From Octopus vulgaris (Eukaryota): 64,000 nucleotides of DNA. The translations under genes and the position numbers were made by a program. How positions within the stretch are numbered: position 1 is the stretch's first letter; each line of letters begins with the position of its first letter. The notes beneath the pieces are model-generated. The model worked only from the letters and a program-made list of their open reading frames with translations. It was not told where the DNA came from and ran no database searches. This document shows positions 38,661 to 43,256 of the stretch, in pieces. The stretch is from positions 32,798,001 to 32,862,000 of the forward strand of contig OX597823.1 in the NCBI GenBank assembly GCA_951406725.2, in the 5' to 3' direction.

Positions 38661-40297
38661 AAACCACATTTACAACTGTCACACAGTGTCATGGATACAG
38701 AGAAACAAATACACACACACATACACTCATTCATTTATGTACGTTGAGATTCTTTCAGTTTATATGGTCCAAGGTGCCACACAGTGGGTTTGAACCTGAC
38801 ACCACATGGGTAGGGAGCAAACTTCTTAACCACCTGCACATCTATCATATATAGGTGTGTGTATATACATTTTTGTATGTCTGTATAGATATATATCTAT
38901 ATATATGCATGTATATACATGTGTGTATATGCAAATATATAGAGATGTTTGTATAAATATATATATTAATATGAATGTATACATGAGTGTATATACATGT
39001 ATTTGCGTGTGTTTGCATGTATATGGTTGTATGTATATATATATATATATATATATATACATACACACACGTGGATGTGTATATGTATGTATATAATACC
39101 TATATATATATAGGAGCCTAGCACAAATGCATTTTATATGTGGCCCTGAATCAATGTGAAAACTACTATTTAATATGTTTTAATCAGAAGATTCAACACT
39201 TCTCAACCTTCAGTTACTCCACATTTTTTCTGATATCTCTGCTCCTCTTTTATTCTTTGAACTCATCCCAACCAATAAATTGTGACCATGCTGGAGCATA
39301 GCTCTTGTGATCTTTATTGCTTCTTTGTGGTTTTGCTTTTACTTATCAGTTTGTTTTGTTTTTTGCAAATTCTTAGCCCCCCCCCCACACACACACACAC
39401 ACATACATATACCTTTCCTTTGTGTTTTTGTAGTTTTAATTTTGTCCTCCTCCTTCCAATCTCTCTCTCTTTCTCTATTCTCCTCATCCTTTTACCCCCA
39501 TAACCAGTCTTCTTTTGTTTTTTATATTTGCTTTTTTAATTTCTACAACAAAAAAATGAACAACTTTTGTTCTGGTGTTTCTATTATTCTTTTTCTGTAG
39601 TTCTGACTTTGCTGCTGTATGCACTCATATGTACACTTGTAACACAAGATGTTGTGTGTGTGTCTATACACACTCGCACATATAAATCACATAATACTTC
39701 TCGAACAAACTACAAATTTGGAATATTTATGAGTGTGTGTGTGTGTGTACACATGCTGATAGGAATGGAACCAGACCATCTGGAAATATTACCTGTCAGA
39801 GACTATTATACGATCCAAAGCTACATTTATCTCAGACAATTGGCCTTCACTCTCTTATGTTGTCATTGATACATTTAACATTGACAGGGGAGATAACTTA
39901 CCTGGTGCAGTAGAAGGCTTGGTATGGAACAACCTCGTCAGCCTGTCGTCAGTCAAAAGATATTTGTGTCTCTTTACATTCTGACTTTAAATTCCGTCAA
40001 AGTCTACTCTTGTCTTTCATACTCAGGGGTTGATAAGCTAAGCACCAGTCCTGTTCTGTGATCCACTCCTCCTAAAATTCTTTGTCTTTCGTCTATATTA
40101 ACAAGCACTATTTCACTTCTTTTACAATCTTAATGATATTAGAAGAGGTCTGAATGTACAAGCTTCCATTATATACTGCAGCTAAAATATTAATTAATGC
40201 TTAATTAAGAAGTTATTTCAGAGATGTACTTGCCAGGCAAGTTATCTGAGACCAATTGTTGAAACTAAAATAACTACAGTATGGAAGACATATATTG

Positions 40298-40493
40298 GCC
40301 ATTCAAAAGCACGTAAAGCTTATCTTCTCTCAAACATTCATTACTTGGTGTCAAAATTTTCATTGGACTAACTGCAACGTAGTGACTTGTGGAACCACAT
40401 AAGTAACCTGGTCACAGTTGGTGTAACAAAAATTTTGACCCCAAATAATAAACATTTAAGTGAAGTTAACAGTTTTTATTGTTTTTCAATGGC
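40298..40493. repeat. Old imperfect palindrome (foldback/MITE-like)
   Basis: Matching arm segments: gccattcaaaagca/tgtttttcaatggc, ttggtgtcaaaatttt/aaaattttgaccccaa, aactg/cagtt and gtgac/gtcac. Confidence 0.6.
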
Positions 40494-40841
40494 TCCACGC
40501 TGTAATTGTAAGAAGTTATTATATTTCTTATAAATAACTAAGTTCAAATTTTGCCATGGTCAATTATATCTTCCATCTTTCTGGGGATGATGAAGCATCA
40601 GTGAACTACTGGGGGCAATGTAATCAATTATACCCCCTCTGGAGCTTTATGTTAGGATTAAAGGTAATGTAGTGTGTGGCATGGGACTTATCAAATCATT
40701 TAATCAATTTTAACTCTTAGTCAAATCATTATGGCTTCATATCTTGCTTTTAAAAATACCAAAACTACATCATCCTACATTGTTTATATTATTTACCTGA
40801 TTTACATTTGACGGATATTTGCCCTCATCTTGTTTCTTGTT

Positions 40842-40887
40842 AACACAATGTTTCGGCTGATATACCCTCCAGCCTTCATCAGGTGTC
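40842..40887 (-). ncRNA. Type-I hammerhead ribozyme, left arm
   Basis: Minus strand: gacac-CTGATGA-a-ggctg-gagggtatat-cagcc-GAAA-ca-TT-gtgtt. Core intact; the minimal stem III palindrome acgt is changed to acat. Confidence 0.8.
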
Positions 40888-40940
40888 TTGGGGAAATTTC
40901 GAACCTGGGTTCTCATTCCTAAGGTTTGAAATTTCCCCAA

Positions 40941-40986
40941 GACACCTGATGAAGGCTGGAGGGTATATCAGCCAAAACGTTGTGTT
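40941..40986 (+). ncRNA. Type-I hammerhead ribozyme, right arm (core mutated)
   Basis: gacac-CTGATGA-a-ggctg-gagggtatat-cagcc-[A]AAA-cg-TT-gtgtt. Confidence 0.75.
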
Positions 40987-43256
40987 AACAACAAACAAGA
41001 TGAGGGCAAATATCCGTCAAATGTAAATCAGGTAAATAATGTACATAATTCCTCATCTCTTAAATATAGAACTGTACATCATCCTATATCAGCATTTTTG
41101 GGGTTTTTTTAAACTAACCCTCACACACTACTACTCATTAAAAAGTATTAAATCATCACTGAAGCAGTGGCTGACACATCACTGTGTTAAACTGTATCCT
41201 CATCTGTTAGGATTCAGATTCTCTCTCTCTCTCTCTCTCTCATTGCCCCGAAATCAGTATTCCCTTGTAACTATCTCTTCAGGTGGCTCAATAAGAATAC
41301 CAATAATGGATCTCCATCAATTAAGAGGATGAATGATCAATTATCTCCCCCTCCCTCAAATATGCAATCTCACTCAGTCAAGAGCACTTTTCCATATTTT
41401 CTTTCTTTTCATTGTCTTGCAAGTTACTAGTGCCAGTACACACTGTAAATTAGTTACGTTAGGAAGAGCATCAAGGCATAGGAACCATGCCAAAGCTGAC
41501 ATTGGGGCTGGCTGCAGCCCTGCAGCTAGTTAGGCCCTGTCAAACCATCCAACCCATGCCAGCATGGAAAACAGACATTAAATGATAGTGATGAATTAGC
41601 ATGGAAGTGACTGAGTATTCCACAGACATGTGTACTTTTAATGAAATTCTCAGACAGAATCAGTATTACACAGTGTATGACAAAAACTCGACCCTTAAGT
41701 TACAGGTACCAGGGACAGACCCAAGGGGGGAGGGAGGACTGAGGGGTACTGCCCCCTCCCTCAAGAAAAGAAGTGCACCCTTCTAAATAATGTTTTTACA
41801 CCCTTTTCTCATAGAATTGTATTCCCTTCTGACCTTCAGAAAACTCTTGGGACTACACCTGGGTATAATCTATTTGATAGGTTTCTGAACAGTTTGCTTC
41901 ACTTGGGCCAGTCAACTTGAAGCCTTAGTAAAAAAACGCTGGTCCCAGATGTTACACAGTAAGATTGAACCTAGAACATTTTCATTGCAAAGTGAACCCT
42001 TAACTAATAAGCTGTCCTGATACCTGTGTAATAAACTTCAAAAATTGGCTTCTGTAAGGAGACAGAATATACCTTAACTACTACTACTACTACCATTGTT
42101 GCTCTTATTCGTTTCTCTCTCCACCTCTTTTTGTTGCAAATCATCACGTAATAATTATTTACTACAGGATGGTAGATGGCAGAATTAGTAGAGTGACATT
42201 TAAAATACCTTGTAATAATTGATTATCTCTCTTTACATTCTGAGTTCAAATCCTGCCACAGTCAACTTTGCCTTTCATTTCCTTCTCTCTCTTTCTTTTT
42301 CTTTTCTTTTTTTTAGGGTAGGGGCAATTAAATAAAATACCATTTAAATACAGAGGAGGAAATGTAATCATTTTACCCCACTCCTCTCAAATTTATGGTT
42401 CTGTGCTTATGCAAGACATTATTATTTTCAACATCAGATGAGCCCCACCACCACCACCACCCTATGCAATATCTCTGACAGGATTTTTTAATTAAGTCAA
42501 TGAAAAAATAAACCAAACATCTGTTTCTAATTACATAATTATGTATTTTGTGTAATGTAAACACATCCCAACACATATTTGTTTGCCCAGCCATACCCAC
42601 CCCTATAAATCTATGTTTACCCTTCCACACCCTGTATTTACACTACCACATCCAATCCTATACATCCTTTCCACATATACACACACAACCACCTGACACA
42701 TCTAAAATTAATACTCTTCCACTTTTAACTTAATTAACCCTGTTACTAATTATTTAAGTTTATTTATTTATCGTTATTGTTAATGATTTGTTTAATTTTG
42801 TTGTTATTAAATATTTCATTTTAATTAAGTTTTCTCGTTGCTATATCCAGCCTTCTACCCCAATTATCAACTGTGATCTTAACGACATGGCATTTCTGTT
42901 ATTGGTCAACGCCATAACAAACCTTCTTGCAATTAGTAATCATTAAAAATCTGATTTGGTTATATTAGTACTAAATTCATTTTTATGAAGATGTGTGTGC
43001 ACATGTGTATCTTGTGTATGTGTGTATGACTGTGTTAAAAGTTAATTTATCAATGCAGTGACAGCTAAAATCTATGGATAAGGAAATTAATGTGTGTGTG
43101 TGTCTTCACATTTTAGTAGCTGAATCATTGTAGCTGTTAAAAATTATTCAGAATAATTAAAAATACTATATTAAAAGCTATTAGAAACGCTGTTAATTGA
43201 TCCACTATTACTTTAATGTATTTGGTAATAAAATATATGAAAGTTTTTTCAAATGG

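Follow-up and report, generated by a model that had tools for sequence, protein, structure and literature searches.

A compact palindrome at positions 40766–41086 of the window (the whole stretch of 64,000 nucleotides analysed here) carries a hammerhead ribozyme motif on each strand, and raises the question of whether such a structure moves as an element of its own or is what remains of a larger one. The initial annotation had described a non-coding insertion of about 297 bp with a 12-bp target site duplication (TSD). This was borne out, with a 297-bp insert (40778–41074) located inside a 12-bp duplication, tacatcatccta, whose left copy lies at 40766–40777 and whose right copy lies at 41075–41086, both on the plus strand. 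The final 2 nt of the left copy also match the element and, since the terminal TA of the TSD matches it at either side, the insert boundaries are uncertain by 2 nt. The palindrome itself is present as described, but its arms (40779–40906 and 40922–41049) are 128 nt each and not about 119 bp; they are 95% complementary and are separated by a loop of 15 nt (40907–40921). Folding of the whole insert gave −217.6 kcal/mol (z −29.6), with none of 100 shuffled sequences equally stable. Contigs running from the flank into the element were present in three of four public contig sets, all from runs that are not on record as RNA, and no joint corresponding to an empty site was found at the insert among the matches listed for these four sets.

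Mapping resolved the insert into two pieces of the terminal repeat (pLTR) of a Penelope-like element (PLE). An inverted, 5′-truncated pLTR copy without tail (40778–40925, minus strand) extends from a series of 9-nt repeats through the loop to the inversion junction, and a sense, 5′-truncated copy with tail (40922–41074, plus strand) completes the insert. The junction (40922–40925) is a 4-nt microhomology, AGGT, common to both arms; its complement ACCT lies at 40903–40906, and a small hairpin can close there. On the sense arm, the 9-nt repeats (41020–41043, plus strand) are in frame in the parent open reading frame (ORF) and mark the place where tail-less arms end. They are followed by a 31-nt PLE 'tail' (41044–41074, plus strand), found on this arm only and without a mirror partner. 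The left arm contains one 9-nt repeat more than the right arm. The 9-nt repeats are likely to be an internal start site of reverse transcription, and the end of the tail is likely to be a second one. The loop holds the ATG (40914–40916, minus strand) that opens the parent ORF, and in long copies this frame runs through the hammerhead and the tail into the reverse transcriptase (RT) ORF. The insert itself is therefore non-coding as first stated, but its sequence corresponds to the first 50 or so codons of its parent's ORF. A short, non-coding, near-perfect inverted repeat flanked by a TSD could also suggest a MITE, or another foldback element of the DNA-transposon type, with hammerhead-like motifs arising by chance. 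The ends are however asymmetric and variable, TSD lengths vary (9–13 bp), and every base maps to the pLTR or ORF start of a PLE; this mapping to an RT-encoding parent refutes the MITE-type origin, whose probability we regard as negligible.

The parent PLE that we sought was indeed found: past the tail, family copies run into a PLE ORF whose ATG is the one in the window's loop. A tail-variant pattern with 12 matches led to a locus (L102) where an open frame follows the tail, and the parent was traced from there. Its unit of about 2.7 kb comprises a tRNA-like head, (AAT)n, the ATG, the hammerhead, the 9-nt repeats, the tail, the RT and an endonuclease-like C terminus; then come a stop, about 30 nt and the next tRNA-like head. 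The same passage from the ORF end to the pLTR and its head was seen in 23 of 24 additional loci extending to the ORF end. A separate tRNA-headed SINE had been considered and was dropped, as long copies have the head directly after the ORF stop. The RT domain (PF00078) scored above cut-off in one of four parent ORF fragments and below it in another; a GIY-YIG endonuclease motif was recognized at the C terminus by eye only, Pfam giving no GIY-YIG match on that fragment. From its N-terminal and endonuclease motifs, the parent presumably belongs to the Penelope/Poseidon clade. The majority-rule ORF contained frameshift artefacts (breaks at codon 653 and codon 135), and codon statistics were computed on two in-frame parts. 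Long fragments are on average 92% identical to the family majority (maximum 95.6%) and the longest open frame among those listed for the family has 569 codons, so that the family looks old. No intact parent copy was seen among the family loci examined, and no relative was found in metagenome contigs.

Partial tandems are present at several loci (L102, L109–L111, L114, L118, L123 and L124): some 120 nt of ORF past the tail are followed there by the ORF start. The jump back occurs at the same place in several of them and produces a hammerhead-containing direct repeat unit of about 290 nt, possibly a retrozyme-like tandem sub-family of the parent PLE. A search with the GIY-YIG family (PF01541) did not return the parent among the 30 of 148 loci examined; it returned other PLE families with 781-aa ORFs, which show no DNA match to the parent pLTR in these 30 loci and served as controls. 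One of these families (L103–L105, at G000:C16:20834500–20841500 and other positions) is different from the parent and much younger, with many identical-scoring, intact 781-aa ORFs, and the hammerhead pattern had no match in the 30 loci examined.

How common is the window's arrangement within the family? A 25-mer of the hammerhead had 5,292 exact matches in the 2.8-Gb genome, which is that of an octopus to judge from a 100% match to a protein labelled Octopus sinensis. In a comparison of matched exact patterns, a 25-mer spanning the window junction had 12 matches, and the pattern in which this prefix is followed by its native sequence had 6,744; the window junction thus represents 0.18% of junction-spanning matches. 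Loose contig ends at 40925 show the native continuation in three public contig sets. BLAST with the insert gave 1,902 candidates; 40 of them were scored, which yielded near-full-length matches, and 30 were taken, corresponding to 25 distinct loci. Many of these have the window junction and about 10 have other junctions around the same hairpin. Because this sample was chosen for likeness, a second one was taken by position, from 99 of the first 100 hammerhead 25-mer matches listed, all within the first 55 Mb of contig C1. After removal of three loci representing the second arm of an insertion already included, 87 insertions were mapped. Head-to-head pairs, 136–806 bp long, account for 44 of the 87, and the window's junction occurred in none of these 44; the remaining 43 comprise single arms, tandems and pairs in which one partner did not satisfy the criteria. 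Across the family pairs, the junctions form a continuum. In many inverted pairs (for example L034, L196, L239 and L241), the junction lies at a short GC palindrome that immediately precedes the tRNA-like head, and overlaps reach 11–24 nt. Palindromes at pLTR junctions were reported earlier in Adineta (PMC3846280, excerpts).

These data support the view, already offered in the initial annotation, of an extreme PLE truncation and inversion product, since both a parent PLE and the canonical structure of a PLE insertion were found. The insert very probably consists of two 5′-truncated terminal repeats of one PLE family that were joined head to head in a single, dual-primed insertion event. In such an event, the RT/endonuclease of the element would prime reverse transcription from both nicked target strands, starting at the end of the tail on one strand and 31 nt inside on the other. 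Both cDNAs would stop early and would be joined through the AGGT/ACCT microhomology of 4 nt or by fold-back at the small hairpin, and filling of the staggered cut would produce the 12-bp TSD. We infer the dual priming and the joining step from this structure and from the distribution of the tail. In the 44 position-sampled pairs, the tail is on exactly one arm in 38 (86%), on none in 5 and on both in 1, where an independent choice of start site has a ceiling of 50% one-sided tails (p = 5e-7). The predominance of one-sided tails suggests paired priming at the two start sites. In the simplest account, one complex would prime both target strands, once per start site, and the cDNAs would be joined at their 3′ ends. 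PLEs are described as having an RT start site at either boundary of the tail, with both strands cut and extended and a dimer predicted; their ORF starts within the hammerhead, and insertion does not require cleavage (PMC11167929, excerpts). How PLEs come to have inverted pLTRs and a tail on one side only is described as an open question (PMC8557442, excerpts), and no description of twin priming in PLEs was found in the literature searched.

A single primer could also be envisaged, with one cDNA snapping back at the ACCT/AGGT hairpin and serving as template for the second arm. In favour of this, a small hairpin can form at the loop, self-priming has been proposed for the palindromic junctions of PLEs (PMC3846280, excerpts), and private variants are common to the two arms of one copy, three of them in the window copy. 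Among copies sharing the window's junction, the two arms of one copy have 0.75 non-CpG variants in common, versus 0.17 for arms of different copies; in 36 position-sampled pairs, the values are 0.42 and 0.15. Such shared variants fit either one template per insertion or later gene conversion. Snapping back, however, cannot add a tail that is absent from the template arm. In the window copy and in 14 of the 17 tailed copies with the same junction, the tail is on the loop-free arm, and the left arm of the window copy has the additional 9-nt repeat. We therefore consider a single-primer origin very improbable and retain dual priming.

The initial annotation had proposed that many copies with one junction but different TSDs would point to a mobilizing unit. 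Copies of this kind do exist, about 19–20 of them, but they do not support such a unit, as they share no derived variant. We reduced 42 candidate loci to 20 distinct copies within three mismatches, the junction being modified in one of them (L017). In 11 of the 20, TSDs of 9–13 bp were identified, no two of them alike; automated TSD calls of 5–8 bp were not trusted. Each variant was limited to at most 6 of about 37 arms. Arm distances between copies are identical for same-side and opposite-side comparisons (0.110), approximately twice the distance to the family majority (0.058). The tail is on the right in 14 copies, a group favoured by the BLAST query, on the left in 2, on both sides in 1 and on neither in 3. 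The 112-nt arm cores hold little phylogenetic signal, which limits the power of this test for a sub-family.

A non-autonomous foldback element, in which a palindromic master is transcribed from either strand and re-mobilized by the PLE enzyme, would account for the copies of the window junction (12 exact, 20 near-exact), which are of similar length, mostly 270–306 bp, and occupy different sites flanked by different TSDs. Several observations argue against it. The window junction is rare within the family, different subfamily variants occur on both arms of different copies with no shared derived variant among them, the side of the tail is not fixed, and other junctions around the same hairpin are frequent among the BLAST-selected neighbours. 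Furthermore, the palindrome has no tRNA-like head, where the RNA 5′ ends appear to lie, in its hairpin (−217 kcal/mol) neither the RT start sites nor the two ribozymes would be accessible, and there are no tandem copies, the defining feature of non-LTR retrozymes. A foldback element of this type is thus very improbable, and the distinct ambisense 'foldback retrozyme' suggested earlier finds no support in the junction counts, the variants or the position of the tail. Same-junction copies are more numerous than expected if junctions were spread uniformly. This is the main evidence against the reading of independent, dual-primed PLE insertions, and these copies may be a small star-shaped sub-lineage. 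It is likely nevertheless that the same junction recurred independently, about twenty or more times, at a minor hot spot of dual-primed insertion, for which the 4-nt microhomology or the small hairpin at the junction would be responsible.

Each arm contains one minimal type-I hammerhead motif, in agreement with the initial annotation (40842–40887 on the minus strand and 40941–40986 on the plus strand). Both have a 5-bp helix I, a 6-bp helix II, an unpaired base before helix II and a palindromic ACGU replacing helix III; together with the CUGAnGA/GAAA core and the G10.1–C11.1 pair, these features match min-HHR (PMC4209133, excerpts). In both arms, stems I and II form; taken alone, they reach only z −1.1 to −1.4. 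An Rfam scan of the insert returned no hammerhead family, only generic hairpin (miRNA) models below gathering scores. The minus-strand motif keeps its core, with a predicted cut site between 40847 and 40846, and its helix III ACGU has decayed by a CpG transition at 40849 (GAAACATT). In the plus-strand motif, which is predicted to be inactive, the core G12 is changed to A by a CpG transition at 40974 (AAAACGTT).

The letters of these lesions are as first reported, each arm being damaged where the other is intact. A complementary design does not follow from them: both are common CpG decays in the family and, being CG to CA transitions, need no special explanation. Most other family copies have the intact letters at both places, and across 103 family arms the core is intact in 47, carries GAAACATT in 18, the other CpG change in 15 and AAAACGTT in 4. 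As the ribozyme sits in the first codons of the parent ORF, any inverted pLTR pair has one per strand. The two hammerheads of the palindrome would therefore be passengers, both decayed by CpG transitions after insertion, and the window copy is predicted to be inert. The idea that folding competes with self-cleavage is not supported by the layout either: on whichever strand a head-to-head palindrome is transcribed, the antisense arm emerges before the ribozyme, and folding would pre-empt cleavage. A switch between folding and cleavage is thus unlikely. Minimal hammerheads require a same-strand partner and cleave poorly in vitro, and opposite-strand hammerheads 100–700 bp apart were already reported (PMC4209133, excerpts); the motifs of the window differ from these pairs in being 89 bp apart from start to start, with one CpG lesion each.

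The palindrome is thus ordinary PLE debris, with a layout already known for these elements. EN+ PLEs (D. virilis Penelope, Adineta Pen2a/Pen2 and Anolis Poseidon PAc) likewise have an inverted, 5′-truncated pLTR beside a sense pLTR, a tail of about 31 nt at one end, a TSD of 9–13 bp in an AT-rich target, and a pLTR that holds the first ORF codons and a hammerhead. An inverted, 5′-truncated copy with a tail of 30–40 bp at one end is the typical PLE layout (PMC8557442, excerpts), and in an Adineta copy the tail is 31 bp long, the TSD 9 bp, and the pLTR includes the first codons (PMC3846280, excerpts). Unlike the units of EN+ PLEs, the window copy has no ORF body between its two pLTR pieces. Animal non-LTR retrozymes resemble it in being about 300 bp long, non-coding and PLE-derived, with a type-I hammerhead; they are however organized in head-to-tail tandems, where two same-strand ribozymes release a monomer for circularization (PMC7229834 and bioRxiv 10.64898/2026.07.22.740005, excerpts). 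The window insert is a single head-to-head pair with one ribozyme per strand, both damaged.

Less ordinary than the palindrome is its parent PLE, with a tRNA-like head and a sense strand without T4. The pLTR starts with A and B boxes that fit the consensus, and for such a head no PLE description was found. Among 25 distinct host tRNA sequences, obtained from 30 of the 34 tRNA loci returned and covering only some isotypes, the head aligned best to tRNA-Arg(TCG), with z 9.1 versus shuffles. ARAGORN found no tRNA in the heads of 18 loci and Rfam gave 0 matches; no tRNA fold is therefore left, and it is by direct alignment with tRNAs of the host that the head is linked to tRNA. The majority of short family copies resemble SINEs that have a tRNA head and a ribozyme tail. 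Schistosoma SMalpha is reportedly another tRNA-headed mobile element. SINE2 and Helenus TRIMs begin with tRNA-derived A and B boxes (PMC10886601, excerpts), as does the terminal repeat of the window's parent, and a tRNA-like segment is present in the autonomous LINE RTE-1_DAn (PMC5786205, excerpts). In contrast to these elements, the head is here in the terminal repeat of an autonomous protein-coding element, and the window copy is truncated short of it.

Among 131 arms, 33 have their 5′ end within −19 to +3 of the head start and 12 run further into the ORF end. Furthermore, the 2.7-kb sense strand of the majority unit contains no TTTT. By base shuffling 6.6 runs were expected (p 0.0015), by a dinucleotide model 5.2 (p 0.0045), by a third-base model on 818 codons 4.9 (p 0.003) and by synonymous permutation 2.9 (p 0.031). 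T4 runs are scattered in individual copies (0.38 per kb), with none in 45 of the 72 copies. The depletion concerns one family and the controls are ORFs from outside its clade: ten other ORFs of at least 300 codons from stored loci contained 32 runs versus 27.6 expected, and another PLE family had 9 in 781 codons. The accumulation of 5′ ends at the head and the lack of TTTT suggest that the parent may be transcribed by Pol III from its tRNA-like head. The accumulation of 5′ ends would equally result from a Pol II start, or from a pause of the RT at the short GC palindrome that precedes the head, and Pol III has been argued to be too weakly processive for long units (PMC10886601, excerpts).

Were the parent transcribed end to end by Pol III, the internal start of PLE reverse transcription would allow one RNA to give rise to full-length copies as well as to SINE-like stubs with a tRNA head, in their thousands. 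The stubs would result from cDNAs primed in the 5′ repeat, whose synthesis would end at the RNA start, and a dimeric enzyme, using each start site once on opposite target strands, would build the mirror-image insertions. We put this combined scheme forward tentatively and hold it to be rather unlikely. A tRNA-headed or Pol III-driven PLE was not described in the literature searched, which comprised main texts of papers, and is not mentioned in the excerpts available of PMC13282606, PMC8967140, PMC6962438, PMC7229834 and bioRxiv 10.64898/2026.07.22.740005. Pol II is taken to transcribe autonomous elements of the non-LTR type, and Pol III elements are regarded as short and without coding capacity (PMC10886601, excerpts). 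If real, a 2.7-kb Pol III unit that encodes an RT, begins with a tRNA head and lacks T4 would cut across this division. It would also raise the question of how an uncapped RNA is translated, in which the hammerhead at the ORF start is possibly involved. Independently of transcription, the thousands of short pairs in one genome and the 86% of one-sided tails in our sample provide a direct prediction for an in vitro PLE system.

Single-nucleotide differences were also noted in the insert. At 40881, 40953, 40965 and 40966, A>G or T>C changes reach 13–16% of the depth in a small contig set (X17) and only 0.04–3% in three large ones. They could reflect A-to-I editing of foldback transcripts, and subfamily variants explain them equally well; the X17 run is not on record as RNA and carries another organism label. 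A second, older inverted repeat is located 300 bp upstream of the insert (40320–40469), with arms of 72 nt at 72% and a spacer of 6 nt. It is unrelated to the PLE, low-copy by contig depth and possibly a decayed MITE; contigs of three runs skip 40291–40443 and may represent an empty site or a relative. Finally, 450 bp downstream, positions 41526–41627 hold another short repeat of very high copy number, with contig depth in the millions.
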